This document shows, piece by piece, positions 17,765 through 39,982 of a stretch of DNA of 64,000 nucleotides (position 1 is the stretch's first letter; every line of letters starts with the position of its first letter). The position numbers were made by a program, and so were the translations under genes. The notes under the pieces were generated by a model, which did not search any database, was not told where the DNA came from, and worked only from the letters and a program-made list of their open reading frames with translations. This stretch comes from Patescibacteria group bacterium (lineage in GTDB: Bacteria > Patescibacteriota > Minisyncoccia > Phycocordibacterales > UBA9973), in NCBI GenBank assembly GCA_028865035.1, contig JAGWLB010000001.1, positions 6,673 to 70,672 of the forward strand, read 5' to 3'.

Positions 17765-18832
17765 TTACATTCCAGTGCTATTAACTCTCAATTTAGTGTA
17801 AGGATTACCGAGATCTCCGTGGAATCCTATGTGAACGTGTGGTCCGGTTGATAAACCAGTCGAACCGACGTATCCTATAATATCACCTTGCTTCACAACT
17901 TCTCCTACTCTAGCAGCGACTTTATTCATATGACCAAAGATTGCTTGACGTCCGTCAGTGAAATCTACAACAACGTACCTTCCATAGCCACCATTATAAC
18001 CAGTTGGGTGAACGATAAGAACAGTCCCATCGTGTACCGCAAATATTGGAGTATTCTTTGGGGCAGCAAAATCATAAGCATCATCAGCGTGTAAACCTTG
18101 AGATACACGTCCAATACCTGCTGGGAACGGCCATATGTAACCTTCACTTTCTTTTGGACTTGTTGTTTGACTTGATTGTGTATTATCTTGTGTTTGTTGA
18201 TCATTAGTATTATCTGCAACCTGTTCATTGCCCACAAATTTATTTGGCGTTGGGATTATTATCTCTGCTTTTTTCTTAACAATAGTTTTTTGTTTTGGCT
18301 TACTAGGAGTACTAGTTTCACTATTTTTTGATTCTATAGAAAGGATCGTTAGAGTTTGTCCTATTTGAAGCAAATCATTTTTGCTTAAATCTGCATTTGA
18401 AAGCAAAATAGTACTGACGGGGACATTTAACTTATTACTAATACCACTTAGAGTATCTCCCTTTTGAACAGTATAAGTGAAAATTTTACTAGTGGAAACA
18501 TATTTCTCTAAATCTGAATCGACACCCAGGGCTCCATCATTAGACAGAAAGGTTATATCATTCTTAGAAGAGGGTGAAGTGTCGTCTTTAATATCTTTAA
18601 AATCTGGATTAACAGAAGATTCTAGTAATGGCACATTTTGAGAATTATAAGTAATACCTTGATTTGGGACAGTTATTTCTGCGGCTTGAGTTTGTTTACC
18701 TAGAACTTTTGTTATTAAATCAGTAAAAAATCCAGCATTTGCATGGTTTGGTTGGTTTAATATATATATAAATATAAACATCAATAAACCCACCTTTACG
18801 ATAAAAGGTTTGATAAATAAGGGTATTTTCAT
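17765..18832 (-). CDS. LysM-domain M23 family peptidoglycan endopeptidase
   Basis: Signal/TM N-terminus; LysM (YTVQKGDTLSGISNKLNV); M23 motifs HADDAYDF ... GSTGLSTGPHVH. Confidence 0.8.
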   Translation of the reverse strand: MKIPLFIKPFIVKVGLLMFIFIYILNQPNHANAGFFTDLITKVLGKQTQAAEITVPNQGITYNSQNVPLLESSVNPDFKDIKDDTSPSSKNDITFLSNDGALGVDSDLEKYVSTSKIFTYTVQKGDTLSGISNKLNVPVSTILLSNADLSKNDLLQIGQTLTILSIESKNSETSTPSKPKQKTIVKKKAEIIIPTPNKFVGNEQVADNTNDQQTQDNTQSSQTTSPKESEGYIWPFPAGIGRVSQGLHADDAYDFAAPKNTPIFAVHDGTVLIVHPTGYNGGYGRYVVVDFTDGRQAIFGHMNKVAARVGEVVKQGDIIGYVGSTGLSTGPHVHIGFHGDLGNPYTKLRVNSTGM

Positions 18833-19170
18833 CGAACGGTCTCTTTTGCTTGGAGGTTGACCGTCGGAATCTTTTTTTATGGGTTTAATAAGCCTAATTT
18901 ATTAATTACACTCTGATTACCCCATTCTGGGAATTACAGTACGACCGCAAAAGCGAAAGCTGTAATTATATATATAATACAAAGGTAATTGTTACAATCG
19001 TCCAGAAATGCTTGCAAAATAAAGCTTTATTTCTATTCAGTATCTAGAGACTCCATATATTTGTCTCTGTATATAAGCCTATCCCATATAATAGACATAG
19101 TCAACGAAGTAATGCACAGGTGCATTTTGTTCCCAATTTTGAGTATATTTAACAAGTATATCTAGTGTTT

Positions 19171-19200
19171 TTGACGTATTTAACGAATATGTTGTATAAT
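19171..19200 (+). promoter_or_regulatory. Candidate promoter TTGACG-18-TATAAT, placing the transcript start at or next to the ATG (leaderless)
   Basis: -10 hexamer ends 7 nt before the ATG at 19207. Confidence 0.35.
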
Positions 19201-19206
19201 TTAACT

Positions 19207-21483
19207 ATGGAAATTAAGGATTTTTTCTCAAATCAGAAAGATAATCAAAACACAGATACTATAAACGTAGTTGGCAAAAACAGAGACGTTAAAGACAATA
19301 AATCACTAAAAAGGATTTGGGGTAAGACGATAAATAGCAATTTTAATCAAAAAACTTATAAATCTTTTGATGGTCTTAGGAAAGATTTTAAAATTAAAAA
19401 AGATGATAATAGCAAGAAATTGATGAATAATATTGCTGAAAACTCGTTTAATGTGAGCCGGGAGAAATTTGAATCGAATTTTAATAAAAAATTCTCTAAA
19501 GATAAATATCCTGAATATAGCGAGGAGACGAAAAAAAACATATTAGCAAAAAAGATAGAAAAGATGAGATATGAGTTCGAAAATAAACCAGACAGAAGGT
19601 ATGAAGACACACTAATACCATTGAATGCAAAATCTTTAATAAAAGACAATAAAAATGCAACTGATAATGATATAATAAATTCATCATCTATGCCTGAGAA
19701 AAATGAACCTAAAATAGAATCTCCTGAAAAAAGTACTCTGAGTGCTGAGGATTTGAAGTTGCAGCAAGATTTATTTGTATCAGCCCAAAAATATGGAACT
19801 GCTTTGCGTGATAAATTAAATACAAATAGAAAAAACCCAAGATTTAAAAATGATTTAGAAATTTTTAATAAAAGCCCTTATGAATCACTGGGAATAGAGC
19901 TTAACAGACTAATAGATAACGGAGTGAATGCCTTAGAGAAAACTAAAAGTAAAGAAGAAAAAGAAATAATACTAAATAGAATAGTAGAAAATAAAATAAC
20001 ATTAAATAGCTTAAAATTAGCAATTAATAAGAATATAACTTTAAAGCAGGTAGAGGTATTATTTAAAGAAAAAGAAAAATCCATACAAGATGAACGTAAC
20101 GAAATTATTACAAAAATTGGTCAGATGCTAAGACAGGGTGTAGATAAAGTTGTAATACATGGACAAACAATTGAAAATGGAGATGAAGTAGAAATTAAAC
20201 CTGAATTTGGTGAAAATATTGATACAGATACACGAGGAGCTTTGTACTTCCTTAGCCTTTCTAAGGGAGTTAAATACAAAGAAGGATCTTATACACAGCT
20301 TGGTTTTAAAGGATCGAAAGTTGATAACGAAGAACCAATCATATCTAACGATCGAAAACAAGACAAAGTTGACACCACTCTTTATATCGATACTTCTGGA
20401 GAAAACCTATCATATAAAATTGGTATTGATGGTAAAGAAATATTTATCGATCATCATCATAAATATGACAACGCGAATTATACATCGGCGACAGAGCTTA
20501 TGTACGAAGTACTTACGAAGAATAAAATGATAAAGTCAGAACCATGGATGAAAAATATGGTTGATTTCGTTACAAATATAGATAATTTATCATACGCAAA
20601 TGACAAAAGATATAACTTAGAATTCTTAAAAAATAAATGGCCCGAGTCTATCATTGGAATTTATAAAAATGTACCATTTAGCAAAATAACTCAATGGTTC
20701 AAAGAAGGCAGGGATCCATTCAAACCAGAATTTACCGAAGCAGATTTAAATGAGGTGCTACCAAAAGTTGAATTAAGTAAAGACGCTGAAGGTAATACAA
20801 TAAAAAAGATAGGAGAAACAAAGCTGTTAGATATAATAAACGACAAAAGAAGAGAGATAGGGGCTGATATAAGTAATGCAAAATTAGCAATCGAACTTAT
20901 GAAAGCGAAGGGTATAAAATTAGAAAATGAACGATTGGGTAAAGTTTTGTATAATTTACAAGATAGACAACAAGAAATAAAAGATATGGGGACTGGAAGA
21001 AACCCAGTAAACAAAATCTATAATGGGTTTCTTGTTACAAAAGCACTAGGTTTAGATAGCTATGTTACATATCAAAATAAATACAATAGATTTTTGATTA
21101 ATACAAATAACCATAATTTAAGACCTATCTATGAAGAAATTAAGAAAATAGTACCGGAAACTGTGTTGGTTAGAGGTGTAATGTTAATGCAACCGCAAGG
21201 GCTATCTAAAAGAAAAGAAATGACAGAAGATAAATTCTTAAATTTGTTAGGATTAAAAAATGAAGTAGAAAAAAGAGATATGCCGACTGAACAAATTACT
21301 GATTTTGAAAAATTAATGAAAGAAATTAAATTAAAAAAAGAAAAAGTAGAGGAAATGAAAGCTAAAGAGGAAGAAATTAAAAATTATTTGAAAAAAATAG
21401 AGGATGCAAAATTAGATAATCAAAATAAAATAACACAAAATAGATTAACTGAGTATATAGATTTTGAAGATATAAAAAACTGA
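19207..21483 (+). CDS. Large Lys/Asn-rich protein with a central DHH-family (NrnA-like) phosphoesterase domain
   Basis: Motifs align with NrnA: DTDTRGALYFL (DxD...G-S/A), LYIDTSG (motif II), IFIDHHH (DHH), SATELMYEVL, VTNIDNLSYAND. No DHHA1 GGGH motif seen. N-terminal ~330 aa and C-terminal ~300 aa extensions are low-complexity or unassigned. Confidence 0.6.
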   Translation: MEIKDFFSNQKDNQNTDTINVVGKNRDVKDNKSLKRIWGKTINSNFNQKTYKSFDGLRKDFKIKKDDNSKKLMNNIAENSFNVSREKFESNFNKKFSKDKYPEYSEETKKNILAKKIEKMRYEFENKPDRRYEDTLIPLNAKSLIKDNKNATDNDIINSSSMPEKNEPKIESPEKSTLSAEDLKLQQDLFVSAQKYGTALRDKLNTNRKNPRFKNDLEIFNKSPYESLGIELNRLIDNGVNALEKTKSKEEKEIILNRIVENKITLNSLKLAINKNITLKQVEVLFKEKEKSIQDERNEIITKIGQMLRQGVDKVVIHGQTIENGDEVEIKPEFGENIDTDTRGALYFLSLSKGVKYKEGSYTQLGFKGSKVDNEEPIISNDRKQDKVDTTLYIDTSGENLSYKIGIDGKEIFIDHHHKYDNANYTSATELMYEVLTKNKMIKSEPWMKNMVDFVTNIDNLSYANDKRYNLEFLKNKWPESIIGIYKNVPFSKITQWFKEGRDPFKPEFTEADLNEVLPKVELSKDAEGNTIKKIGETKLLDIINDKRREIGADISNAKLAIELMKAKGIKLENERLGKVLYNLQDRQQEIKDMGTGRNPVNKIYNGFLVTKALGLDSYVTYQNKYNRFLINTNNHNLRPIYEEIKKIVPETVLVRGVMLMQPQGLSKRKEMTEDKFLNLLGLKNEVEKRDMPTEQITDFEKLMKEIKLKKEKVEEMKAKEEEIKNYLKKIEDAKLDNQNKITQNRLTEYIDFEDIKN

Positions 21484-21496
21484 TAGACTAAATATT

Positions 21497-23551
21497 ATGT
21501 CAGAAAATACAGAACAAAAAAATAAAGAAATAGAAGAAATGGAGAAAGAACTTAGAGAGCTAGAAGCTTCTAAGATTATTGAAGCAGAGGAGCTTAAAAA
21601 AATGGAGATAGATGCCATTAAAAAAGCGAAAGAATTGGGTAAATCTCGGGAAGAATTAATTGCAGAAAATTTTAATGAATCTGATATTGATGAAGTCTAT
21701 GGCTTAAAAGATAGTACCAACCCAGGAAAAACTCAAAAAGCGAATGAGGGCATCAATCAACAAGATGCAGAAGTCAGTACGGCTGATAATAATGATGGGA
21801 ACGAGAAAAATAAAGCCGAAGAAGCCTTATTAGAAAAAGAAGTAGAAGATACTCGTGAAGCATATATAAAAGAATATTTTAACTGTAAAAAAGAGGCGGA
21901 AAGAGAATTTAAAATAGAGAAAACGCGTATAGCCACTTATAATATATTATCTGGAATTAATAATACTTTCTCAAATAACAAATTAAAAAAAGATAAATTT
22001 AGAGAAGAAGATTATTTTAAAGGAAAATATAAAGAATTAAAGAAAGCATATGATCAGGCTGTTACAGATATGGGGAACTATCTCTATAATAAGAAAGTAT
22101 CAGAACTAAAATCGAAAGGTATCTCTGATCAAGAACTAGAAGAAAAGCTTAATAAATATCAAGCAACGGAAATCTTGGTAAAAACAGTTATAAATGAGCA
22201 GAAAAAATTGATCGATGCTAAAAAAAGTAGAGCACCGATAGATCCAACTCTGTGGAAGAAATTAACTGATGGTTATCATAATATAAAACCAGAATGGAGA
22301 AGAGTAGCTCTAAGTACATTACTAGTACTTATGCCAAACGCTACAGTTGATAACATAAAAGAACTACCGCATAGCGATAATGTAAATAAAACCACTATTT
22401 CTAAGGAACATATTTTTAAAGATACTACCAAGAATACTCATATACTGAATAATAAATCTGAAGATATAAATAAAAGTAATAATGTTGCTAATAGTGATAG
22501 CAGTATTAATAAAGTACCGACTCAAGTTAATCCAGAAACAGATACAGTTATAAACACTCCTCATATTAATGATACGGTGGATGACAAAGTACCGACTCAA
22601 GTTAATCCAGAAACAGGTTTAGTGACAAATACTCCTCATATTAAAAATACAGCTGAATTAAAAACTGAGTCCAATAATGTTCCTGAAACAAACAATAAAA
22701 ACTTAGATGGGAATCAGGTTACTCGATCTAATAACAATATCTATAGTACACATAGAGAAGATAATGTTTACCCAAATGGGCAAACATATATGAGCACAAA
22801 TGGAATAGAAGAAGAGCGGATGCGTGAAGTAGAACAAATGAGAAATCTTGATCGAGCTCAAAACAGAATCGATCGTTATGGTATCAATATTGCTTCTGAC
22901 CCTAGACACTTAGAAACTACTGCTGATGTAAGACGTGCCTTTGGTGGTGAAAACGTTATTATAGATAGGCCAGAAAGTAATACTATAAATAACATTAGAT
23001 ACGAGGACTGGAATCGAGCAGCAGAGCATACTTTTGAGCAAAAGGGGGTTCGTTTTGCCTCGTATGCTGAATATGAAAAAGAGATTCAACTTCAGGAACT
23101 TTTTGGCTATGGTGAAGTAGGGGTGGAATACGTGTCTTCTCTTGGTAGGAATGTCAATGTGATAAAAATGAGTTATTTCCGTCAGACACCAGGATGGTCA
23201 ATTATAAGGAAGATTCCCGCTAGAGATTTTTTCAGCTTTGATAGAAATACATTAAGCAATCACGAAATAAAAGAACTTGTTAAAACTGGGTTTTTAAAAG
23301 ATAGAATCATAAATCTTGGACAGCATAGTTACTCTTTTGTTCAACAAGGAGAATTAGAAAGACTGGCTGATTTTTTCTCAAAGATAGATCCATTTAATGC
23401 AGGTCCAATAGGTGATGAAAATATTGAAAACTATATTAGTCGTCTAACAAAGCATATACACCAGACAGAAGATGGAACACTGTTTTTATTCAGAAAAGGT
23501 GGAAGCATTAATGACGAAATTATTAATAATGGTATGGTTAGAAGACCATAA
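21497..23551 (+). CDS. Hypothetical protein: N-terminal coiled-coil, internal tandem 23-aa repeat, unassigned ~300-aa C-terminal domain
   Basis: 684-aa ORF; repeat KVPTQVNPET(D/G)xVxNTPHI x2; no recognisable catalytic motif. Confidence 0.55.
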   Translation: MSENTEQKNKEIEEMEKELRELEASKIIEAEELKKMEIDAIKKAKELGKSREELIAENFNESDIDEVYGLKDSTNPGKTQKANEGINQQDAEVSTADNNDGNEKNKAEEALLEKEVEDTREAYIKEYFNCKKEAEREFKIEKTRIATYNILSGINNTFSNNKLKKDKFREEDYFKGKYKELKKAYDQAVTDMGNYLYNKKVSELKSKGISDQELEEKLNKYQATEILVKTVINEQKKLIDAKKSRAPIDPTLWKKLTDGYHNIKPEWRRVALSTLLVLMPNATVDNIKELPHSDNVNKTTISKEHIFKDTTKNTHILNNKSEDINKSNNVANSDSSINKVPTQVNPETDTVINTPHINDTVDDKVPTQVNPETGLVTNTPHIKNTAELKTESNNVPETNNKNLDGNQVTRSNNNIYSTHREDNVYPNGQTYMSTNGIEEERMREVEQMRNLDRAQNRIDRYGINIASDPRHLETTADVRRAFGGENVIIDRPESNTINNIRYEDWNRAAEHTFEQKGVRFASYAEYEKEIQLQELFGYGEVGVEYVSSLGRNVNVIKMSYFRQTPGWSIIRKIPARDFFSFDRNTLSNHEIKELVKTGFLKDRIINLGQHSYSFVQQGELERLADFFSKIDPFNAGPIGDENIENYISRLTKHIHQTEDGTLFLFRKGGSINDEIINNGMVRRP
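22515..22652 (+). repeat. 2 x 69-bp tandem direct repeat inside the CDS
   Basis: gtaccgactcaagttaatccagaaacag...actcctcatatta repeated with a few substitutions. Confidence 0.7.
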
Positions 23552-23564
23552 AAATACTAGTAAT

Positions 23565-23873
23565 ATGTTAGACAACATAGACAACAAAATAATAGAGATA
23601 TTGGGCATTAATAAACTTTCAGAAAATGAACGAAAGGAAGTGGTAGAAAAATTGGGAGCCCTAATATACCAAGGAGTGATGCTTCGTGCCTTAGATATTA
23701 TGGATGAAGAAGATAGAGACACTTTTGAGAAGCTCATTTCAGAAAATTCTGATCCGGAAGTAATTTTTACTTTTGTTGCTGAAAAAATACCAGACATTAA
23801 TGAAATAATCTCAGAAGAAACTGAAAAACTTAAAGATTATGTTACTGATATTATGAGCGGAATCGGGAAATAG
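23565..23873 (+). CDS. Small acidic hypothetical protein (~102 aa)
   Basis: Start placed at MLDNIDNK, just after the stop of the upstream gene; no domain recognised. Confidence 0.4.
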   Translation: MLDNIDNKIIEILGINKLSENERKEVVEKLGALIYQGVMLRALDIMDEEDRDTFEKLISENSDPEVIFTFVAEKIPDINEIISEETEKLKDYVTDIMSGIGK

Positions 23874-26860: not shown

Positions 26861-27739
26861 ATGAATAAGTACTTACCAAGCAGACAATTCATAATTAGAG
26901 TCATAGTGATTGCCATAATTATTTCGGTTGCCTTTGGTATCTATAAATTAGTAATTTATTTTAAAAATAAAACAAGCCAAAAAACTTCATTGAAAGTTTT
27001 AGTTAAAGATTTAGTCCAGAAAGATACAAATAATAATGGTATTCCAGATTGGGAAGAATCACTTTGGGGTCTTGATCCGACTACAAATGGCCCTGCAAAC
27101 AAAGAATTTATATTAGCCAAGAGAGCAGCTCTTGCAAAAGATACTACTGTCCCAAAACTTTCTGACGGTATAACTCCATCCAAAGAAAACGAAGCTTTAT
27201 CTCAAGAATTCTTTGCTGTCATTATGTCTCTCCAACAGACTGGCAACTTAGATAGTGCTTCAATGCAATCAGTTGCTGATGCTATAAGTAAAAAAGTAGT
27301 TGCTACACCAATACCTGACATATATACCAAAGATATGGCAGTTATTGAAGACGATGGCACATTACCAATGATAGAATACTATACTGCTTACTTAAATCTA
27401 AATAATAAATATTATAAAGATGATGGTATCGGTACGGAGCTTTCTTTAATTGCCGTAGCATTAAGAGATAAAGACCAAGGAGCCTTAGACCAGGTAGGGA
27501 AAATAGGTGAGGCTTACAAAGCAATGGGTAAAGATCTTATGAAGATACCCGTACCGACAACATTTTTAGCGAATCATTTAGATTTAGCGAATAACTATGA
27601 AAAAATAGGAGAGTCTATCGACGATATGACGAAGATGCTTTCCGATCCAATGGTGGGTATGAGAGCATTTATAAATTACAACAAATACAGCGATGCATTA
27701 GCTAACGATATCAGTTTTCTTTCAGACAATTATAAATAA
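26861..27739 (+). CDS. Hypothetical bitopic membrane protein with a calcium-binding-loop-like motif; first gene of the T4SS-like cluster
   Basis: N-terminal TM; DTNNNGIPDWEE resembles DxDxDGxxDxxE loops. Confidence 0.5.
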   Translation: MNKYLPSRQFIIRVIVIAIIISVAFGIYKLVIYFKNKTSQKTSLKVLVKDLVQKDTNNNGIPDWEESLWGLDPTTNGPANKEFILAKRAALAKDTTVPKLSDGITPSKENEALSQEFFAVIMSLQQTGNLDSASMQSVADAISKKVVATPIPDIYTKDMAVIEDDGTLPMIEYYTAYLNLNNKYYKDDGIGTELSLIAVALRDKDQGALDQVGKIGEAYKAMGKDLMKIPVPTTFLANHLDLANNYEKIGESIDDMTKMLSDPMVGMRAFINYNKYSDALANDISFLSDNYK

Positions 27740-27765
27740 AAATGATATAATATTATTGACTATCT

Positions 27766-29934
27766 ATGAAGGGATTTACTAGAAAAAGAATATTATCGAT
27801 AGTGATAATTACAGCTATGCTTTCTACGCAAGTTGTTTTGCCTTTGCAAGCCAACGCTGGCACATTCTTAAACTATCATAATACAAACCCTTTCCCTGTT
27901 CCTAAATTATCATTAAGAGCCATAACTCCAGGGTTGCTTACATCAGTAGTAAGTTGTACTGGCATTACAAATAAAGCTGCATCAAAATTAATACAATTAC
28001 ACGATGCAATAAAAAAAGAAACCGACAAGCTACTAACTGGCATAAAAACTGATATTAAAAACCTTTTAATGAGTAACGCAAAAAAAATAGCACTTGAGAA
28101 ACAAGTTGCCGCAGTAAAAAGAAAAGCATTAGAAGCACTTGCAGCAACAAATGCAGGAGCGGGTGGCTCTATTTTAGGAGTTAAGGTAGGCGATGTAGTA
28201 CCATCTCTTGTTAATATAGGTATAGACGATTTATCAAAAGCACAAACTATAAACGTAAATGACAATGGTACCCATACAGCTGTTAGTAACACACAAACTA
28301 ATGCTGTGAATATAGCGAGTGCAGCTGATTCTCAACAACAATCAAAAGACTGTTTAAACGGTATTGCAAATGCTCTTATTAAAAGTCAGTTACAAAATAT
28401 GACAGAGCAAACAATGAACTGGGTGAATAGCGGATTTGGTGGCGACCCTATGTATGTGACAGATGTTAACTCGTTTATGAACGGTATAACTGATCAAATT
28501 CTATTGAAAGAAACAAGTTTGTTTAAGAACCCACTAACTAACGGCGACTATCCATACGGTCGCAACTTTGCACAAGGAGCAATTAACGGCAACCAGGCAT
28601 TGAATAATTTCCAGGATTCAATGAAGCAAGATCTTACAAGCTATCTTACTCCTGGGTCTACTCCCCAGACTTTCGCTACTGATTTCTCTCAAGGTGGATG
28701 GGATGGGTGGCTAGCTTTAACACAACATCCACAGAATAACCCGCTAGGTTTTACAATTAATGAAACACAACACATAGCTGATTTACAAAATACTCAGGTA
28801 AAAAATACAACTGATGAGATAAACCGCAACAGTGGCTACCTTGATCAAAAGAAATGTGTCCAGTGGGAGAATCTTGATAAAAGTGGAGAGGGTATACAAA
28901 CCACATCTGACACTGGTAAAAACCAAGATGGAGTCTTAAGGCCTGGCGATGTGACACAGACTGACTTGTGTATCAAATGGCAGACAATAACTCCAGGAAG
29001 TAATATAAAAACTAAAATTGATACTTATGTAAACACTCCTGAGCGTCAGATTGAACTCGCAAGAACTATGGATGATGCTTTGAATGCACTTTTTACAGCT
29101 CTTTTGGGTCAATTCCAAAAACAAGGTTTATACGGATTACAGTCTACTGATAATGCTGGTGTTAATAATGCCAATGGCGGTGGATTTGGTGTTAATCAGG
29201 TTTTTGATAGTAACGGTAACAGTCTGACTCCTATACGAACTTTTAGCGGAAATAGTGGTTTCACTTCTGGAGATGGATTCTTTGACCTCACAAAAGACTT
29301 AGGTAACACTTATAATCCTTTATCTACAACAAGTAATTGGATAATAGATAGCAAAGGCGTCCTACAAATTCAGTACGATTACCTAAACTTATTAAACAAA
29401 TCAAAGACAATTATGGATCAAGTTATGCCTGCTTTAGGAAAGCTTGATTACTGTATCCCAGGACCAAATCCAGATTGGAATAATATTTCTCAAGATGCAA
29501 TAAGTGCTTATATTGACTCAGTGAGTACAGGAACAACAACGCCACCTATCGACTTGGGTACTCTAGATAAAACTCTAGCAGATTACGGAACGCAAATAGA
29601 TAATACATATGGTCCTAATAGTCCTATGCAAAGCGGTGGCACTGGTAATACAAATTATCTAAAAATGTCATCTGAGGGTCTTAATATTACAAAAGATATG
29701 GGAACATATGCTGACACAATATCATCAGCAGAAGGCGACTTCAGTAGCTCACTTGCGGAAGCAAATTCAAATATTGCAAAGCTAAATATTATAAAAGATA
29801 AAGTAAATGCGATAATCATTGCTGCTCAGAAACGCCGTGCTGCTAAGAGAATACAGAGTGGCCTACCAAACGTATCGTCGGCTTGTTTAATATCAGAAAG
29901 AGTAACATATCTGGATAACGGTGTAATTAAATAA
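27766..29934 (+). CDS. Large secreted hypothetical protein (722 aa)
   Basis: Signal peptide MKGFTRKRILSIVIITAMLSTQVVLPLQANA; Gly/Asn/Thr-rich; no known domain. Confidence 0.55.
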   Translation: MKGFTRKRILSIVIITAMLSTQVVLPLQANAGTFLNYHNTNPFPVPKLSLRAITPGLLTSVVSCTGITNKAASKLIQLHDAIKKETDKLLTGIKTDIKNLLMSNAKKIALEKQVAAVKRKALEALAATNAGAGGSILGVKVGDVVPSLVNIGIDDLSKAQTINVNDNGTHTAVSNTQTNAVNIASAADSQQQSKDCLNGIANALIKSQLQNMTEQTMNWVNSGFGGDPMYVTDVNSFMNGITDQILLKETSLFKNPLTNGDYPYGRNFAQGAINGNQALNNFQDSMKQDLTSYLTPGSTPQTFATDFSQGGWDGWLALTQHPQNNPLGFTINETQHIADLQNTQVKNTTDEINRNSGYLDQKKCVQWENLDKSGEGIQTTSDTGKNQDGVLRPGDVTQTDLCIKWQTITPGSNIKTKIDTYVNTPERQIELARTMDDALNALFTALLGQFQKQGLYGLQSTDNAGVNNANGGGFGVNQVFDSNGNSLTPIRTFSGNSGFTSGDGFFDLTKDLGNTYNPLSTTSNWIIDSKGVLQIQYDYLNLLNKSKTIMDQVMPALGKLDYCIPGPNPDWNNISQDAISAYIDSVSTGTTTPPIDLGTLDKTLADYGTQIDNTYGPNSPMQSGGTGNTNYLKMSSEGLNITKDMGTYADTISSAEGDFSSSLAEANSNIAKLNIIKDKVNAIIIAAQKRRAAKRIQSGLPNVSSACLISERVTYLDNGVIK

Positions 29935-29938
29935 TTAT

Positions 29939-30874
29939 ATGGAACATAATAAACCTAAAAAAAGCAAAGCATTCATTATAACTTTTATAGCAGTTATGAT
30001 TCTTCTGCTGGTAGGATATTTTATTTTCTTAAATAGTAATAAACTTTTTGGAACAAAAAATTCGACAAGTATTAGCAAGATTTTTGCACCGCTACTAGGT
30101 ACTTCAAAACAAAAAACACTAAATACTATCGATAATAGTGGTAATACTTCACAAAATTCAAATTCTGCTAACACAAACAATGGTAATACTAATCCGACTA
30201 CTAGTACAAATGGGAATAGTAACACCAACCCAGTAACTGGAATAAGTGACGGTAATACAAATACTAGTAATCAAACTCTTGATGCAAACGGGAATCCTAT
30301 ATCTGTTGGTGGATTAAATGGGTCCAACAATATTGGGTCAGGAAGTCCAGGGAGTATTGATGGTTCTATCGGAGCAAACGGAAATATAAATAACAGCACA
30401 CTTAACTCTACTCCATCATTAAATCCTTTACCTACGCCAGGGAGTAATCCAGCATTAGCTAGCTCGACACCATCTCCGATCTCAACATCTATACCTAGCT
30501 CTACACCTAGTGTTGCATCAGCAACAATATCAACAACAAACGGCAATCTTTGCCCTGTAGATGATCCTTTAGTTTTTACAGATTCAGAGAAAGCTCAGCT
30601 AGATGAATTACTAAAAGAATATTATCTTATCTCTCCTACACTAAAAACTGCTGACGATATATCAGTGTTACAGGATGATATATCTACAAACCAAGCATTA
30701 GTAGATCAAGCAAATCAACTTACAAATGAATGCCAAGCAGAGAAATCGGACCCTAGTTATACTGGCCCTCAGGTTACGAAGAACAATCCTTACTACAGCG
30801 ACCCAAGTAACACTGGAGCTACGCCCTATATACCAACCTACAGTCAACTAGAACAGTTATTTAATATTTGGTAA
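29939..30874 (+). CDS. Bitopic membrane protein with N/T/S/P-rich linker and Cys-containing C-terminal domain
   Basis: TM FIITFIAVMILLLVGYFIFL; ~150-aa low-complexity linker. Confidence 0.5.
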   Translation: MEHNKPKKSKAFIITFIAVMILLLVGYFIFLNSNKLFGTKNSTSISKIFAPLLGTSKQKTLNTIDNSGNTSQNSNSANTNNGNTNPTTSTNGNSNTNPVTGISDGNTNTSNQTLDANGNPISVGGLNGSNNIGSGSPGSIDGSIGANGNINNSTLNSTPSLNPLPTPGSNPALASSTPSPISTSIPSSTPSVASATISTTNGNLCPVDDPLVFTDSEKAQLDELLKEYYLISPTLKTADDISVLQDDISTNQALVDQANQLTNECQAEKSDPSYTGPQVTKNNPYYSDPSNTGATPYIPTYSQLEQLFNIW

Positions 30875-30886
30875 TTATTTATTATT

Positions 30887-33571
30887 GTGAAAAAATTTCT
30901 TCCCACTATATTCATACTTCTAATTATTGCGAATCTTTTCGCTCCTTTTAGTGTGAGTGTTGATAAAAATAATACACCAGTTGTAAAAGCATCTGTAGCT
31001 GAAGCAACGGACACAGTGGGTATTAAAATAAGCGGCCATATTTCTCATACCGATACTAATATAACTCCTTGGTTAACAGTGGTATGGTATTTGGGTGCTG
31101 ATAATAGTAAAGCTTCAGTATTATTACAAAAAGTTGGTTCAACTGATATAACAAAAGCAGATATAGATATGAAGACAGATGATGCTGCTACGCAGGCTTA
31201 TGATGCTAGCCACAACGGAGATCCATTACCTTATACAGTACAAACAGGTAATATTCCTTTATCAGTATTACCAAACACAACATATAATGTAACATTAGTT
31301 GCAACTCAAAATCTTACATTTTGGGGTCATCCTCTTTCGACTGTTTATAATGGTCTAACAGCTGGAAGTAATCACGATGCTGCATATTTATTGTTTACAA
31401 TCACTACCAATAATCAAGGAGATATAACAAAAGTAGACAGTGGTTTAAAAAATAGTTTAAGCATAGATGCGTACATGCCACCATGTAGTATTGTAGGTGG
31501 AAATGGAACAATAGCTGGTTGTGCAGCGCAACTTTTATATTACGTATTGTTTATTCCTACTTCTTACATATTTGCTCTAACAGGGCAAATGTTTGATTTT
31601 ACATTTTTCTATTCTGTAAAAGATACTTCATATCAATCTCCTTTTGTGTTAAATGGTTGGGGGATAATTCGTGATTTCTGTAATATGTTCTTTATATTCG
31701 TATTGTTGTATATCGCTTTTGCTACAATATTAGATATTCACGGATTTAAAACTAAAGAGATGATAATCAATGTAATTATTATTGGTTTACTCATAAACTT
31801 TAGCCTCTTCGCTGCTCAGCTTATTATTGATTCTTCAAATATTCTGGCTAGAGTATTCTACTCTGATCAAAGTGTTAAAATTACTCAAGGTGGGGCAAAT
31901 GGAGTAACAAACAATACCCCAAAATTGAAAGTTGGGCCAAATGGTGAACTACCATTATCTGCTGCGATAGTAAACAAAGTTAATCCTCAAAATTTAATAA
32001 TAAACGGAGTAAATAACGTAGGGGTAGACGATCCTGTTAGTAACAGCAACAGCATAAGTAACACAACCATAGGTGGAAGCAGTTTAAATGCTGGGGGATT
32101 CATTTTAATAGTGTTACTTGCGGTTGCGGTGAACGTGGTGGGAATAATAGTATTCGTATCTGTAAGTATGATATTTATAACAAGAGTAATTGGATTATGG
32201 ATGGCTATGGTATTTGCGCCCCTTGCATTCTTCTCTTATGCGGTACCAAAAATGAAAAGCATAGATATGATTGGTTGGGAAAAATGGTGGCCTGAGACTA
32301 TTAAGCTTGCGTTCCTTGCTCCAGTGTTTATGTTCTTCTTGTATCTCATTATTCAATTCTTAGATACAGGACTTAGCCTTATTAATATACAAGGTCAAAA
32401 CAACATAGCTTTTATAGTAGCAACGGTTGTTCCTTTTGCTTTTATTATGATATTACTCTGGAAAGCAAAAAGTATTGCTAGTGAGATGTCTGGTAAACTC
32501 GGCCAGACCATTACTGGAGGTATTGCAACAATTGGAGGACTTGCACTTGGCGGAGCAGCATTAGGTGTTGCCTTTTCAGGAAGAAAAATTATTGGGGAAA
32601 GAATAGCCGCTAGATCAAGGACAGCAGATTCTATTCATTACGGTAAAGAAAAAATTGCATTTAATAAAAAACTGGAGGATTGGGAAAAGAATGGTAAAAA
32701 AGGAGATAAACCTAAATGGAAAGATCATGCAAAAGCAAATAATGTTAAAACTAATCTTCTCACTAAACTTGGTGGTAATTTAAATGCAAAACAAACAAAA
32801 ATAAATGAGGTGGATCATGCTCGACATGAAATTGATACTATAAAAGATAAGGCGGGATTAAAAGGTGTTAATGACGATAATCTTTCAGGTGTAGATAAAC
32901 AAAAACTAGCTACAACATTTGCAAAAGAAAAGAAGACAGAAATAGAATCTGAAATAAGAAGAGGTACTAAACCTTTATTAGATGAAAATGGTAAAGAAGT
33001 TAAAGATGCAAACAATGAAGTTATAACGGGAGGTGAAAGTGGTTTCAAAGCTGCAAATAGAGATAGGGTCACAAAAGAAATCAGAGATGCAAGTAGTGAT
33101 AATATTCATACTGATGGAGGACTTACGGACGCAGCAAAGAAAAAAGTTGAAGATCAATTAAATGTACAATTTAATGCTATATTAAAAACTTCTACAGACA
33201 AAGAAACGGAAAAAAGATTTAATCATCTACAAGAAGAGTCTAAACAAAAAGTTGGTGGATTTGATAGAGTCTTTGCTCAATCAAATAAAGGTAGTTATGA
33301 TGTCAGAAATCTATCTCAAACAAAAGTAGATAAAAGAGAGAGAGCATTCACAAAGATGAGTGCTGGCTTAATAGCTGGTATTGCTATGGGGGTAAGAACT
33401 GGGCTTAAGCATAGTAATGTTAACCACGGATCTGGCCAAGGTGACTTCTTAAAAGATATAGGGAATACAATAACAGAGGCTCTTAAGAGTACAAAACTAA
33501 AAGTAGAAATTGAAAAAAGTCATGGAACTAGTGGTGGGGATGCTCATACCACAGGTGGTGGACATCATTAA
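30887..33571 (+). CDS. Giant polytopic membrane protein, VirB6/TrbL/PrgH-like (GTG start)
   Basis: Signal peptide, ~230-aa extracytoplasmic domain, at least 6 TM helices, and a ~330-aa charged cytoplasmic tail. The call rests on architecture and synteny next to PrgI/VirB4 homologs, not on motifs. Confidence 0.45.
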   Translation: MKKFLPTIFILLIIANLFAPFSVSVDKNNTPVVKASVAEATDTVGIKISGHISHTDTNITPWLTVVWYLGADNSKASVLLQKVGSTDITKADIDMKTDDAATQAYDASHNGDPLPYTVQTGNIPLSVLPNTTYNVTLVATQNLTFWGHPLSTVYNGLTAGSNHDAAYLLFTITTNNQGDITKVDSGLKNSLSIDAYMPPCSIVGGNGTIAGCAAQLLYYVLFIPTSYIFALTGQMFDFTFFYSVKDTSYQSPFVLNGWGIIRDFCNMFFIFVLLYIAFATILDIHGFKTKEMIINVIIIGLLINFSLFAAQLIIDSSNILARVFYSDQSVKITQGGANGVTNNTPKLKVGPNGELPLSAAIVNKVNPQNLIINGVNNVGVDDPVSNSNSISNTTIGGSSLNAGGFILIVLLAVAVNVVGIIVFVSVSMIFITRVIGLWMAMVFAPLAFFSYAVPKMKSIDMIGWEKWWPETIKLAFLAPVFMFFLYLIIQFLDTGLSLINIQGQNNIAFIVATVVPFAFIMILLWKAKSIASEMSGKLGQTITGGIATIGGLALGGAALGVAFSGRKIIGERIAARSRTADSIHYGKEKIAFNKKLEDWEKNGKKGDKPKWKDHAKANNVKTNLLTKLGGNLNAKQTKINEVDHARHEIDTIKDKAGLKGVNDDNLSGVDKQKLATTFAKEKKTEIESEIRRGTKPLLDENGKEVKDANNEVITGGESGFKAANRDRVTKEIRDASSDNIHTDGGLTDAAKKKVEDQLNVQFNAILKTSTDKETEKRFNHLQEESKQKVGGFDRVFAQSNKGSYDVRNLSQTKVDKRERAFTKMSAGLIAGIAMGVRTGLKHSNVNHGSGQGDFLKDIGNTITEALKSTKLKVEIEKSHGTSGGDAHTTGGGHH

Positions 33572-33581
33572 TATATAAATT

Positions 33582-34601
33582 ATGGATCAAACACAATTAC
33601 AACAGCAAATATCCTTATATTTCTCAAAGTTACCAACAAATGTTCAACAAGTATTTTCTAGTATGACTTGGATGGAAACCTTGAAAGAAATTAGTATTAA
33701 GTTCGGTCTTAATAATGATCAGATAGAAACACTAGGCACAGAGACGACTTTAGTACTACTTGGAATTGTTAGCATAACAGACTATGAACAGACTCTTGCT
33801 AAAGAAATAAATATGCCGCATATAACTTTAGAGAAAATGTTTATGGAAATAAACAATTCAATATTAAAGCCTATTAGCTCATCTCTAGATCAAACTTATA
33901 ATGAACATGTTGAGTCATTGATTGAAGAAAAGTATGGTGGTTTAGAAAAGCTTGATGAACGTTTCACTAAGCTTCCCAAAGAAGTTCAAGAAGCTATTAC
34001 TGAATCAGATTATCAATCTACTCTATATAGTATAGGAAGCAAATATAAACTTTCTGTTAGTCAGATGGGAGATCTAGAAGAGGTTACCAATGGTGTGCTT
34101 CTAGGTATTATTCATCCAGATAAATACGAAGATGAAATCAAATCAAAGTTAAGCTTGCCAGCAGATAAAACGACTGAGCTTGTAAATGAAATAAATGAAA
34201 ATATTCTTAAAAATATCCGTGAAATATTAAAGTCTCACTGGGGCAAACAAGAAGAGAATTTAAGTAATACAGACGATGAAGTTCCATTACCACCATACGC
34301 TAAAAGCGATATTGTAAAAGAAAGTTCCACGCCTGTTAGTATAACTACACCGATAAAAGAATCTATACCGGTTCCATCGCCTAATACGCAGGTGGAAATA
34401 AGCAAAGATGAAAGTACTGTGGATAAAGGGAAAATAGAAAAAGATATTTTTAGTAGTAAGTTAAGTGGCCCGACAGTAAGCAGGCCTGTTATTAGCGACC
34501 ATTCTTTACCTGAAAACAGTATTAAAAAAACGATAACTTCTTCGGGGAAAACAGATTTGGACAAACCAAGACCCGACCCTTATCACGAACCTATAGAATA
34601 G
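33582..34601 (+). CDS. Soluble protein with two tandem ~85-aa repeats and a disordered S/P/T-rich tail
   Basis: Repeat 1 starts LPTNVQQVF...VLLGIVSITDYEQ...EINNSILKPI; repeat 2 starts LPKEVQEAI...VLLGIIHPDKYED...EINENILKNI. Confidence 0.5.
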   Translation: MDQTQLQQQISLYFSKLPTNVQQVFSSMTWMETLKEISIKFGLNNDQIETLGTETTLVLLGIVSITDYEQTLAKEINMPHITLEKMFMEINNSILKPISSSLDQTYNEHVESLIEEKYGGLEKLDERFTKLPKEVQEAITESDYQSTLYSIGSKYKLSVSQMGDLEEVTNGVLLGIIHPDKYEDEIKSKLSLPADKTTELVNEINENILKNIREILKSHWGKQEENLSNTDDEVPLPPYAKSDIVKESSTPVSITTPIKESIPVPSPNTQVEISKDESTVDKGKIEKDIFSSKLSGPTVSRPVISDHSLPENSIKKTITSSGKTDLDKPRPDPYHEPIE

Positions 34602-34620
34602 TTTGTGATACAATATAAGT

Positions 34621-35028
34621 ATGCAATTTAAAGTCCCACAATTTATCGACATTGAAGATAAACTCTTTGGACCTTTTACTTTTCGTCAGTTTGCATATAT
34701 GGCAGGGGGAGTAAGTATGATATTTGTTATTTATAAATTATTACCACTTTGGATCGGTATTTTTCTAATAATACCAGTTGGAATCCTAACTGGCCTCTTA
34801 ACCTTTTATAAGATAAATGATAAACCATTTATCTATTACTTACAGGCTGCTGTAAATTATGCTATATCAAGCAAGCTTTATATCTGGAAGCAGCGCTTAG
34901 TAAAACCAAGCGATAAAAAGGATGGTGCAGAAACAGCTCCTGAAACAACTTCGATTGTACCTATGACATCGACAAGTACTTTAAAAGATTTGGCTTGGAG
35001 TCTGGATGTACAAGAGAAAGAACAGTAA
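34621..35028 (+). CDS. PrgI/VirB3-like small T4SS membrane protein
   Basis: KVPQFIDIEDKLFGPFTFRQFAYMAGG followed by two TM helices, as in PrgI and Tn916 Orf17-type proteins; sits immediately upstream of VirB4. Confidence 0.55.
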   Translation: MQFKVPQFIDIEDKLFGPFTFRQFAYMAGGVSMIFVIYKLLPLWIGIFLIIPVGILTGLLTFYKINDKPFIYYLQAAVNYAISSKLYIWKQRLVKPSDKKDGAETAPETTSIVPMTSTSTLKDLAWSLDVQEKEQ

Positions 35029-35133
35029 TTAGGAATTAATAATTACGAATAAAAGAAGAAAATGCTATAATTTGAGTATAATTATTTAATTACGTTATCT
35101 GATTAATAATTATTAACTCATAATTAATTTCAT

Positions 35134-35787
35134 ATGGCTATAAATGCTCGCGCTGCACAAGATTTTGTGCCAATAAAAGAAGTTCGTAATGGTGTCATCA
35201 TTCTTAAAGATGGTGGTCTTCGAGCTGTTCTTATAGCTTCGTCTATAAACCTGTCATTGAAGTCTTCTGAGGAGCAAACTGCTATTATTAATCAGTTTCA
35301 AGCATTTTTAAATGGCTTAGATTTCTCTACACAGATTGTTGTGCAATCTCGTAGGCTCGATATCAGGCCGTATCTTTTAATGCTTGAAGCTCGAGAAAAA
35401 GAACAAACGGAAAAACTACTTAAAATACAAACAAGGGAGTATATGGAATTCATACGTTCTTTTACAGATGAAGTGAATATTATGACTAAGACATTTTTTG
35501 TTGTTGTGCCTTATAGTCAGACAATCTTAAAATCAAATAATGGAATGATAGATAAATTACTAGGATCTACAACACCTAAAAAGCAAATAGAGAACACCAA
35601 AAAGGCTATGGATATGGCAGATTTTGAAGAAAAACGTAGTCAGTTAGATGAGCGTGTAAGCGTTATTATTTCAGGACTTGGTGGTCTCGGTATACGTAGC
35701 TCTCAATTAAAAACAGAAGAAGTGGTTGAACTTTTTTATAAAACATTTAATCCTGGTGATATCAGTCAGGGGATTAAACTACAATAA
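35134..35787 (+). CDS. VirB4/TraC-family N-terminal domain, encoded as a separate ORF
   Basis: FVPIKEVRNGVIILKDGGLRAVLIASSINLSLKSSEEQTAIINQFQAFLN resembles the N-terminus of Gram-positive VirB4 proteins; stop codon lies 1 nt before the next ATG. Confidence 0.6.
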   Translation: MAINARAAQDFVPIKEVRNGVIILKDGGLRAVLIASSINLSLKSSEEQTAIINQFQAFLNGLDFSTQIVVQSRRLDIRPYLLMLEAREKEQTEKLLKIQTREYMEFIRSFTDEVNIMTKTFFVVVPYSQTILKSNNGMIDKLLGSTTPKKQIENTKKAMDMADFEEKRSQLDERVSVIISGLGGLGIRSSQLKTEEVVELFYKTFNPGDISQGIKLQ

Positions 35788-35788
35788 T

Positions 35789-37651
35789 ATGGGAATTATT
35801 TCATCAATATTTGGTAGTAAGGGAGATAAGAATAGTACTAATCCAAAAAGTACAGTTATGCCTGTGATTCCTACGGAGATTTATAGAGCAGCAACTCTAG
35901 AACTTCAAGATATTATCGCACCTTCTGCTTTACAAATAACTCCGAAAGGTTTAAATCTTGGTGATAAAATTGTTAGAACTTTTTTTGTTATATCTTACCC
36001 TAGATATCTGACAGACAATTGGTTTTCTCCAATTATTAATCTGGATAAAGTTTTTGATGTATCAATTTTTATACATCCGATAGATACTTCTGAAATACTT
36101 CGTTCATTCCAGAAAAAAGTTGCTGAGGTTCAGAGTCAGATTTCTATTCGTGAATCTAAAGGGTTAGTTCGTGATCCAATGCTAGATACCGCTTATCGTG
36201 ATCTTGAAAGTTTGCGTGATAATTTAATGCAGGCTCAAGAGAAAATGTTTGATGTTGGTTTATATATTACAATCTATGCTGATAATGAAAACGATCTGTT
36301 TAAAATTGAAAGTGAAATAAAGTCTCTTCTTGAGTCTAAGCTTATCTATTTAAAACCAGCATTGTTCCAGCAAGACGAAGCTTTTAAGAGTGTTATTCCT
36401 CTTGGGACAGATATATTAGCCGTTCACCAGAAGCTCAACACTGAACCTCTTTCAAGTCTTTTCCCATTTGTATCGTTTGATCTCACGTCGGATAAAGGTA
36501 TTTTGTATGGTGTTAATCGTCACAACTCAAGTCTTATCATCTTTGATAGATTTTCATTACCAAACTATAATTCTATAACTTTTGCGACTTCTGGTGCTGG
36601 TAAATCTTACGCGACTAAACTTGAGATTATACGTACTTTGATGTTTGATACTGAAGTAATAGTCATAGACCCTGAAAGGGAATATGAATATTTGTCCGAA
36701 GCTGTAGGTGGGAGATATTTTAATATTGCACTTTCTTCAGATCACCATATTAATCCTTTTGATTTACCAATACCAACATCAGACGAAACTCCTGCTGATG
36801 TTTTGCGCGCCAATACTATAAACCTGGTTGGATTATTCCGTATAATGCTCGGCGGTCTTACTCCGGAAGAAGATTCTATAATAGACAGAGCAATAACCGA
36901 AACTTATGCTTTGAAAGATATTACTGCTGAGTCAAACTTTGCAAATATAGAACCTCCTCTTCTAATGGATTTTGAAATGGTTTTAGTTGGAATGGATGGA
37001 AGTGAGTCTCTGATTCAACGCTTAGCTAAGTTCACTCACGGTTCTTGGGCTTCTTTCTTGAATCAACCATCAAACGTAGATATTAACCGTAAATTCGTTG
37101 TCTTTTCTGTGCGTGATATGGAAGATGAATTAAAACCAGTAGCAATGTACATAGTCACTCATTATATATGGAATGCAATTCGTAAAAACATAAAAAAACG
37201 TTTACTTGTTGTCGATGAAGCTTGGTGGATGATGAAATCAGAAGACACTGCTTCTTTCTTATATTCTATAGCGAAACGTGGACGAAAATACTATTTAGGT
37301 CTTGCCACTATCACTCAAGATGTCGGAGACTTTATGAAAAGTCCATATGGTGTGCCGATAGTTACAAACTCATCTATCCAGTTATTATTAAAGCAATCTC
37401 CTTCGACTATAGATATTCTACAGAAAACCTTTAATCTTACCGATGAAGAAAAATACTTACTCTTAGAAGCTAATGTGGGCGAGGGAATCTTCTTTGCGGG
37501 ACTCAAACACGTGGCCGTCAAAACCATAGCTTCATATACAGAGGATCAAATAATTACTTCTGACCCATCTCAGATTTTAGCTATTAAAAAAGCAAAGGAT
37601 GATTTAGTAGAACAAGAAGCCAATCAAGATAAAAATCAGGCTAGTATTTAG
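35789..37651 (+). CDS. VirB4-like T4SS ATPase (ATPase domain)
   Basis: Walker A FATSGAGKSYATKLEI; Walker B LLVVDEAWWMM; TraC/VirB4 family organisation. Confidence 0.8.
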   Translation: MGIISSIFGSKGDKNSTNPKSTVMPVIPTEIYRAATLELQDIIAPSALQITPKGLNLGDKIVRTFFVISYPRYLTDNWFSPIINLDKVFDVSIFIHPIDTSEILRSFQKKVAEVQSQISIRESKGLVRDPMLDTAYRDLESLRDNLMQAQEKMFDVGLYITIYADNENDLFKIESEIKSLLESKLIYLKPALFQQDEAFKSVIPLGTDILAVHQKLNTEPLSSLFPFVSFDLTSDKGILYGVNRHNSSLIIFDRFSLPNYNSITFATSGAGKSYATKLEIIRTLMFDTEVIVIDPEREYEYLSEAVGGRYFNIALSSDHHINPFDLPIPTSDETPADVLRANTINLVGLFRIMLGGLTPEEDSIIDRAITETYALKDITAESNFANIEPPLLMDFEMVLVGMDGSESLIQRLAKFTHGSWASFLNQPSNVDINRKFVVFSVRDMEDELKPVAMYIVTHYIWNAIRKNIKKRLLVVDEAWWMMKSEDTASFLYSIAKRGRKYYLGLATITQDVGDFMKSPYGVPIVTNSSIQLLLKQSPSTIDILQKTFNLTDEEKYLLLEANVGEGIFFAGLKHVAVKTIASYTEDQIITSDPSQILAIKKAKDDLVEQEANQDKNQASI

Positions 37652-37690
37652 GTTGGCAAGCTCTTGTAGTTATCATATAATATATAGGTA

Positions 37691-38680: not shown

Positions 38681-38681
38681 T

Positions 38682-39977: not shown

Positions 39978-39982
39978 TATTT

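Follow-up and report, generated by a model that had tools for sequence, protein, structure and literature searches.

The DHH phosphoesterases that offer the closest comparisons for the protein described here are the NrnA-type enzymes, the RecJ and archaeal RecJ/GAN nucleases, and the membrane-held enzyme GdpP. GdpP combines two N-terminal transmembrane (TM) helices, a PAS domain and a degenerate GGDEF domain with a canonical DHH/DHHA1 unit. In the adhesin operons of Mycoplasma, a DHH gene (M. genitalium MG_190/mgpA, M. pneumoniae MPN140) stands immediately upstream of, and is co-transcribed with, genes for large membrane or surface proteins, and its products are canonical NrnA-type proteins with DHHA1. 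Here we consider a gene from a 64-kb stretch of Patescibacteria DNA (64,000 nucleotides of the 203-kb contig JAGWLB010000001.1, hereafter the window). The open reading frame (ORF) at 19207–21483 on the forward strand comprises 758 codons and a stop, and its deposited counterpart, from a 'Patescibacteria group bacterium' metagenome-assembled genome (MAG), has the same 758 aa and is annotated as hypothetical. An earlier interpretation made from the DNA letters and their ORFs, which we call the sequence-only reading, had described the product as a divergent, NrnA-like DHH protein. Our results indicate that it is very probably a DHH-superfamily enzyme with an intact active site and, with moderate confidence, that it acts as a catalytically competent, highly diverged and accessory phosphoesterase with a membrane partner. 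Although the enzyme class is a familiar one, the novelty would lie in the combination of a DHH domain, a second domain that does not resemble DHHA1 in sequence, a membrane-protein partner and large insertions.

All of the motifs quoted in the sequence-only reading were found in the protein, namely VVIHGQ (H318), IDTDT (D339, D341), LYIDTSG (D395), FIDHHH (D415–H417), TSATELMYEVL and NIDNLSYAN (D459, N460). In an alignment of 126 full-length family cores, at most about 50% identical to one another and 23–59% identical to the window protein, the most conserved columns were the DHH motif positions: H318 (0.79), D339 (0.97), D341 (0.99), D395 (0.98), D415/H416/H417 (0.94/0.95/0.98) and D459/N460 (0.98/0.97). 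Judged from this alignment, the motif matches are not due to chance, and the catalytic half can be regarded as a genuine DHH domain whose predicted metal ligands are under strong purifying selection. A catalytically dead DHH scaffold, as in Cdc45, with a structural or adaptor role in a complex at the envelope, would be consistent with the long low-complexity flanks, the fast divergence and the fusion to large non-enzymatic proteins described below, all of which resemble features of structural proteins. Conservation of 94–99% at the metal-binding motif residues (H318, at 0.79, lies below this range) would nevertheless be unexpected for a pseudoenzyme, and we consider such a scaffold extremely unlikely.

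Profile–profile comparison (hhalign) of the 126-member alignment with four NrnA/TmPDE sequences, taken from PDB alignments with B. subtilis NrnA checked against 5J21, gave a match of 88.6% (E 2.7e-6) with motifs I–IV in register. The comparison paired H318 with NrnA H20, D339/D341 with D24/D26, D395 with D80, D415-H416-H417 with D102-H103-H104 and D459 with D156; the controls, a reversed DHH alignment and an unrelated alignment, reached 0.1% and 0.7%. Structure prediction, which the sequence-only reading had proposed as a check, pointed the same way. An AlphaFold2 model of residues 290–688 (predicted local distance difference test, pLDDT, 81.7; predicted template modelling score, pTM, 0.80) retrieved DHH enzymes as its 16 best Foldseek matches in the PDB (E 2.8e-5 to 3.5e-3, probabilities 0.92–1.00, 14 at E <= 1e-3), including RecJ (2zxo, 2.8e-5), GAN (5ght), S. 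aureus NrnA (8iu7, 5.7e-5), PggH (7d62) and archaeal RecJ2. Beneath these 16 enzymes, no match was better than E = 0.1. Fold, profile–profile and motif evidence together uphold the DHH-superfamily part of the earlier description, with the metal-site residues intact. The qualifier 'NrnA-like' was overstated, since no counterpart of NrnA's substrate-binding half can be recognised and RecJ/GAN score equally in the fold search.

The NrnA-type enzymes (B. subtilis NrnA 5J21, S. aureus NrnA/Pde2 8IU7, TmPDE 5O1U and V. cholerae PggH 7D62) share with the window protein the DHH fold (Foldseek E 5.7e-5 to 3e-4), the register of motifs I (H...DxD), II (D), III (DHH) and IV (D), and the T/S-S pair that follows DHH. 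In contrast to them, the window family carries an insertion of about 20 residues in motif I, separating H318 from DxD, and another of about 110 residues after motif IV; the window protein also lacks GGGH, RxRxR and a DHHA1 signal, has a membrane partner and falls below the Pfam thresholds. The longer insertion (residues 466–575) is modelled by AlphaFold as helices, a beta-hairpin and a 28-residue helix (H182–225, E228–250 and H251–278 in core numbering), with pLDDT mostly 76–95, and its residues conserved across the family include W478, P479, S481, P490, G501, P504, P507 and F509. The C-terminal domain that follows was modelled with pLDDT mostly >85 and the element order beta-alpha-beta-beta-alpha-loop-beta-alpha. 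Its family motifs are G578-K579, A613-x-G615-x-D617, F629-F-I-N-S633, P650 and R656-G657 (21172–21177), with conservation of 0.97 for G578, 0.94 for R656 and 0.87 for G657 in the 126 members.

The sequence-only reading had seen no DHHA1 GGGH motif, and this was borne out: neither GGGH nor GGH occurs anywhere in the window protein, and the family conserves other groups. RxRxR is absent from the C-terminal domain, PF02272 matched none of 46 family members, and the C-terminal domain, aligned by itself (hhalign) with the DHHA1 portion of NrnA, gave 0.3% (E 0.19). A DHHA1 identity of this domain is thus not supported by any profile signal. In our own reading of the model, its helices and strands follow an order that a DHHA1-like fold could have, and Foldseek matched NrnA and PggH over their full length. 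An equivalent of GGGH may be situated near G607-F608/G615, where the low-confidence tail of the hhalign alignment would put it, or at R656-G657, as the modelled topology would suggest. From its motifs, the substrate-binding half appears to be remodelled, which argues for a substrate or binding mode other than those of NrnA, GdpP and RecJ. DHH enzymes could then lose all sequence hallmarks of DHHA1 and yet keep the catalytic half.

Residues 289–684 of the window protein form one conserved block, and only the first ~288 and the last 74 residues, outside it, are of low complexity and poorly conserved. The K/E/N-rich flanks of the earlier description were right for the N-terminal side, although that flank spans ~288 residues and not 330. 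They were wrong for the '~300' C-terminal residues, of which 466–684 are conserved and confidently predicted to fold and only 685–758 are of low complexity. The N-terminal flank contains 16.3% K and 12.8% N (lysine in the core amounts to 12%), and the tail is predicted to be helical or coiled-coil-like and is missing from six of the eight close homologues. No signal peptide or TM segment was found in the protein. Across the family, the flanks range from 0 to 956 K/E-rich residues, those on the N-terminal side varying freely between 0 and 744 aa, and stand-alone cores of 340–405 aa exist. A search for Pfam domains in the flanks of seven long relatives (1240–1445 aa) yielded nothing meaningful, the only matches being SHOCT and a weak TraI_2B.

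The family is large. A core-profile search of 1.84 billion cluster representatives (50%-identity level) retrieved at least 423 representatives at E <= 1e-3 and 121 at E <= 1e-30; the window protein itself has eight close homologues. Members occur in Candidatus Saccharibacteria MAGs and in metagenome contigs of matching gene content, and the family is known so far solely from Saccharibacteria/Patescibacteria assemblies. The family is described by no Pfam or NCBIfam model; no publication on it was found, nor any on DUF5663 or on DHH/NrnA proteins in Saccharibacteria, and the main text of Wang et al. 2023 is silent on the family. The gene occupied a single chromosomal position in all 11 informative loci, between a divergent M23/LysM peptidase and DUF5663–UvrD/PcrA, and members as remote as E ~1e-21 retain it; two more contigs were too short to be informative, and the wide family alignment (A3) was too diverse for use in the locus search. 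Between loci, the core shows 39–59% identity where PNPase, ComM and UvrD show 67–89%. The fixed locus together with this faster divergence implies a fast-evolving resident gene and not a mobile one. An origin in phages, mobile elements or defence systems, which weak LPD25 and Phage_Gp17 matches had prompted us to consider, was rejected, as there were no IMG/VR relatives and no PHROG or PADLOC match.

The gene that begins 13 nt downstream encodes the putative membrane partner. Natural fusions of the two proteins were found in eight of 154 representatives, always in the order core, N-module and TM or hydrophobic segment, and the partner is a separate adjacent or nearby gene in other loci (L001/L002/L008, L003, L007, L009, L011 and L012). 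As Rosetta-stone evidence, these fusions point to a functional pair, and we regard the pairing of the DHH-like protein with the downstream protein as likely. In the relatives, the N-module ends with KP(R/E)WKR(V/I)ALST and is followed by a hydrophobic or small-residue segment of 19–25 residues, a predicted TM helix. By the positive-inside rule, the K/R residues that precede it would keep the N-module, together with a fused enzyme, on the cytoplasmic side and expose the rest of the protein, so that in most relatives the partner is predicted to be a single-pass, N-in/C-out membrane protein. The model of the partner's conserved C-module has a moderate pLDDT of 67 and no fold match in the PDB, the best being weak and winged-helix-like (E ~0.4), and a profile search with this module returned nothing. 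In one partner homologue (L003, 11861–15466), the C-module occurs twice (residues 559–796 and 906–1140).

From these observations we infer catalysis at the conserved motifs and docking at the membrane. In the proposed mechanism, H318, D339, D341, D395, D415/H417 and D459 would bind a pair of divalent metal ions in the manner of NrnA and RecJ, and these would activate water for the cleavage of a phosphoester bond. The DHH domain and the C-terminal alpha/beta domain would enclose the substrate in the cleft that separates them, where R656-G657, G578-K579 and G615-x-D617 may replace the GGGH and RxRxR substrate clamps of DHHA1. The enzyme would be cytoplasmic and physically associated with its partner, which would expose a conserved extracytoplasmic domain. 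Its most likely location would be the inner face of the membrane, because the partner is a membrane protein and in some lineages forms one polypeptide with the enzyme. Candidate substrates are dinucleotides, short oligonucleotides and the ends of RNA or DNA strands. Since the fold matches comprise only DHH enzymes acting on nucleic acids, we give a nucleic-acid-type substrate about an even chance.

Several points weigh against this interpretation. The window protein has no Pfam or NCBIfam match, even at E <= 10; phmmer and hmmsearch of PDB sequences with the protein and the 8-sequence profile found nothing relevant. The profile check that had been proposed for PF01368 and PF02272 gave no significant match in the window protein, a result that, taken formally, speaks against a DHH assignment. 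Among its relatives, PF01368 was the sole Pfam family matched recurrently (three of the eight close homologues and nine of 46 in the wider set), always below threshold and with a best E of 2.5e-4. With a shallow 8-sequence profile, hhalign reached only 11% (E 0.0028) and misplaced motif I; compared with the 88.6% obtained from 126 members, this implies that alignment depth matters. The TM-scores of the Foldseek matches were low (0.35–0.46), and both the metal-site geometry and the identity of the C-terminal domain are putative. The substrate class would be a guess from the top-ranking DHH enzymes, the fusions amount to only eight of the 154 representatives, and the conserved gene order could reflect lineage-wide synteny and not function. 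Lastly, the hydrophobic run of the window partner (VALSTLLVLMPNATV) is only ~15 residues long and may not span the membrane; no frameshift that would account for its shortness was found.

The sequence-only reading had raised the possibility that the gene encodes the only nanoRNase or pAp phosphatase of the genome. As a housekeeping NrnA, the protein would degrade pAp and/or the 2–5-nt RNA that remains after the action of PNPase and other RNases. Such a role would be consistent with the DHH core, with S. aureus NrnA and PggH among the fold matches, with PNPase five genes upstream and with the lack of any canonical DHH (nrnA) or orn gene within the window. It would also agree with the proposal that Patescibacteria live on host RNA by means of PNPase, which would require the clearance of nanoRNA (bioRxiv 10.64898/2026.06.21.733656). 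The missing GGGH and RxRxR motifs and the missing DHHA1 signal in the C-terminal domain nevertheless argue against it, as do the size of the protein (758 aa with a 396-aa core, large insertions and variable flanks, compared with ~310–340 aa in NrnA), its fusion or adjacency to a membrane protein and its much faster divergence than that of its housekeeping neighbours.

The cultured Saccharibacterium S. epibionticum ML1 is also informative in this respect. The supplements of Wang et al. 2023 (PMC10633639) list Orn (SEML1_0058) and RecJ (SEML1_0169), both non-essential, and an essential NrnA-type protein with DHH and DHHA1 domains (SEML1_0394, K06881). Because this species already has Orn, RecJ and an essential NrnA, and given the membrane partner and the fast evolution of the family, the claim of a sole nanoRNase is disfavoured, and we consider the housekeeping role quite unlikely. 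The same genome also encodes a separate DHH-only hypothetical protein, SEML1_0073, of 603 aa and without a Pfam match, to which ECOD assigns only the N-domain of 'DHH phosphoesterases' (residues 1–75 and 91–260) and no DHHA1-type domain (PMC10633639). Its transposon-sequencing class is NE/GD/GD, disruption leading to a growth defect (PMC10633639). The position of the loop and the domain content are similar to those of the window family, of which it may be a member, whereas the gene neighbourhood (S20 ... TruB) differs. Together, these comparisons suggest an accessory, lineage-specific activity for the window protein, which is probably not a housekeeping nanoRNase. If the protein were merely a third, redundant oligonucleotidase, it would be of modest interest.

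The best Foldseek matches were RecJ and archaeal RecJ/GAN (T. thermophilus 2ZXO, D. radiodurans 5F54-56, M. jannaschii RecJ2 7YIK and T. kodakarensis GAN 5GHT), and the 28-residue helix ahead of the C-terminal domain in our model resembles the long helix that precedes the second domain in RecJ structures. These likenesses would be consistent with a RecJ-like single-strand exonuclease at the membrane, acting on DNA or RNA that enters or leaves the cell through natural competence, the nearby apparatus of the type IV secretion system (T4SS) kind or the uptake of host nucleic acids. The partnership with a membrane protein would favour such a location, and the gene lies between ComM and UvrD/PcrA, ~5 kb upstream of a VirB4-containing, T4SS-like cluster. 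The T4SSs of the Candidate Phyla Radiation (CPR) have no relaxases, and a different role has been suggested for them (bioRxiv 10.1101/2025.01.22.634366); host RNA uptake by an unknown route has been proposed for the phylum (bioRxiv 10.64898/2026.06.21.733656). However, the window protein differs from RecJ in lacking the OB-fold (PF17768), any other RecJ accessory domain and the DHHA1 motif; neither the OB-fold nor a RecJ-specific domain was found in its long relatives, and the cultured Saccharibacterium has a canonical RecJ. UvrD and KsgA intervene before the T4SS genes, to which there is no direct link, and adjacency is in any case weak evidence because the neighbours are housekeeping genes in a lineage-wide conserved order. 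We therefore regard a RecJ-like exonuclease as unlikely.

A membrane-associated phosphodiesterase of cyclic or linear dinucleotides, in the manner of GdpP, Pde2 and PggH, would make the enzyme and its partner a signalling module, with the outside domain of the partner as the sensor. In the fused members, the order of an outside domain, a TM segment and a cytoplasmic DHH enzyme would be consistent with such a module, and PggH and Pde2/NrnA are among the fold matches. A divergently oriented M23/LysM cell-wall hydrolase is a constant neighbour, and a Ser/Thr kinase is inserted in the module at one locus. The likeness to GdpP (9N0L, among the NrnA homologues) is that of a membrane-held DHH enzyme, here deduced from fusion or adjacency to a single-pass protein, but none of the N-terminal TM helices, PAS, GGDEF and DHHA1 domains of GdpP was found here, and the topology is reversed, the TM segment following the enzyme. 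GGGH and RxRxR, on which GdpP-type enzymes rely, are likewise absent. No cyclase-like motif was found in the window, and the annotation tables of S. epibionticum, as far as these are available, list no term for a diadenylate or diguanylate cyclase (PMC10633639), which weakens a role in cyclic-dinucleotide turnover; we consider it very unlikely.

Returning to the interpretation we favour, an accessory and membrane-partnered DHH phosphoesterase, a more specific and rather doubtful extension would be that enzyme and partner constitute a Saccharibacteria-specific, membrane-docked nuclease module that processes nucleic acids crossing the envelope. If so, the module would handle host RNA or DNA taken up for nucleotides or transformation, with the extracytoplasmic domain of the partner facing the host, and it would be a missing component of the so far unexplained route by which Patescibacteria acquire nucleic acids. 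Activity on nucleic acids at the membrane would bear on how nucleotide-auxotrophic epibionts obtain and process those of their hosts. The Mycoplasma genes MG_190 and MPN140 offer a parallel, in that a DHH gene precedes a large membrane-protein gene in a reduced, host-dependent genome, although their canonical products are unlike the window family. Much of bacterial diversity belongs to the Patescibacteria, and the genes specific to their lineages mostly have no assigned function. The present gene, hitherto 'hypothetical', can now be placed in a family of at least 423 representatives with a predicted catalytic machinery, a remodelled half, a fixed address and a partner, which provides a handle for work in genetically tractable Saccharibacteria.

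The ORF claimed by the sequence-only reading is real, with a length of 758 aa plus stop where 759 aa had been given. Alternative in-frame starts exist upstream (GTG 19165 and ATG 19189), and a sigma-70-like site ends 6 nt before the ATG at 19207, with no Shine-Dalgarno sequence found ahead of this ATG. The arrangement TTGACA...TATAAT, 6–8 nt and ATG also occurs in four orthologous loci (L001, L003, L007 and L009). The longer versions of the ORF would include the promoter, which supports the start at 19207 and a leaderless mRNA. With the spacing from promoter to ATG kept in five loci including the window, the leaderless transcript suggested earlier is plausible. The G+C content of the neighbourhood has its minimum at 20001–22000 (0.29), with a strong purine skew (GC skew 0.25, AT skew 0.30); this composition stems from the AAA/GAA/AAT-rich codons of K/E/N-rich proteins and not from a foreign origin.

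Coordinates of the DHH-like gene, its domains and its neighbours in the 64-kb window
Feature	Position	Strand	Basis and remarks
DHH-like protein gene, 758 aa	19207..21483	+	ORF list; stop codon included; identical to deposited KGI58_00150
Promoter-like site TTGACG-18 nt-TATAAT	19171..19200	+	Consensus scan, 11/12 matches; putative promoter
N-terminal flank, residues 1–288, K/N-rich, poorly conserved	19207..20070	+	Alignment of close homologues; composition
DHH catalytic domain, residues ~300–465	20104..20601	+	hhalign against NrnA/TmPDE, motif conservation, Foldseek
H318	20158–20160	+	DHH domain motif residue
D339/D341	20221–20229	+	DHH domain motif residues
D395	20389–20391	+	DHH domain motif residue
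D415-H416-H417	20449–20457	+	DHH domain motif residues
T426-S427	20482–20487	+	DHH domain motif residues
D459-N460	20581–20586	+	DHH domain motif residues
Family-specific insert, residues 466–575	20602..20931	+	AlphaFold model, conservation table
C-terminal alpha/beta domain, residues 576–684, at the DHHA1-equivalent place	20932..21258	+	Conservation, AlphaFold
K/E-rich C-terminal tail, residues 685–758	21259..21480	+	Composition, 20% K and 19% E
Partner gene, 684 aa, starting 13 nt past the DHH-like stop	21497..23551	+	Homology to C-terminal parts of long family members
Partner N-module, residues ~90–284	21764–22348	+	Ends with KPEWRR and hydrophobic run VALSTLLVLMPNATV (22304–22348, residues 270–284)
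Partner imperfect repeat, 2x ~24 aa, residues 338–386	22508–22654	+	In N/T/P-rich linker between hydrophobic segment and C-module
Partner conserved C-module, residues 457–676	22865–23524	+	Family conservation
M23/LysM peptidase	17765–18832	-	Divergent from DHH-like gene across 375-bp intergenic 18833–19206
DUF5663 protein, 102 aa, likely start ATG 23565	23565..23873	+	PF18908 E 6.6e-4, just below cut-off

Where the contig reaches far enough, the wider block around the gene runs from PNPase through a hypothetical gene, a DksA/TraR-like gene, ComM and the M23/LysM peptidase on the opposite strand to the DHH-like gene, preceded in some loci by DUF5663 and a large hypothetical gene. It continues with 0–5 variable genes, the large partner homologue, DUF5663, UvrD/PcrA and KsgA. 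The divergent arrangement with M23/LysM recurred in all related loci that were examined, the most distant ones among them, and one or two DUF5663 genes flank the module throughout. The mechanically called DUF5663 ORF of the window (23472–23873) shares 80 nt with the 3' end of the partner gene, and ATG 23565 is the likely start because the DUF5663 homologues measure 100–104 aa. S. epibionticum has a pair of DUF5663 genes, SEML1_0162 and SEML1_0163, which come after the gene of an essential hypothetical protein of 768 aa and are classed as essential and growth-defective (PMC10633639).

A hypothetical protein of ~1500 aa precedes the DHH-like gene in some relatives (seen in the regions 1116–7962 of L010 and 3425–7975 of L006). 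The Ser/Thr protein kinase inserted in L010 is homologous, in its C-terminal half (residues 352–605), to residues 864–1119 of the large hypothetical protein (E 7e-62), which may point to a domain common to both, possibly a sensory or extracytoplasmic one. In the partner of the window, the imperfect repeat follows the pattern KVPTQVNPET..V.NTPHI..T and is seen at the protein level only, not being reported by Tandem Repeats Finder. Further downstream, 26861–41302 on the forward strand contains mostly unannotatable genes, together with a TraG/VirB4-type P-loop ATPase at 35726–37651 (PF19044, E 1.8e-24) and a VanY-like peptidase at 38682–39977. This run lies just upstream of dnaA (43394–44746) and agrees with the type IV secretion cluster without a relaxase that has been described for CPR bacteria close to the origin of replication (bioRxiv 10.1101/2025.01.22.634366).

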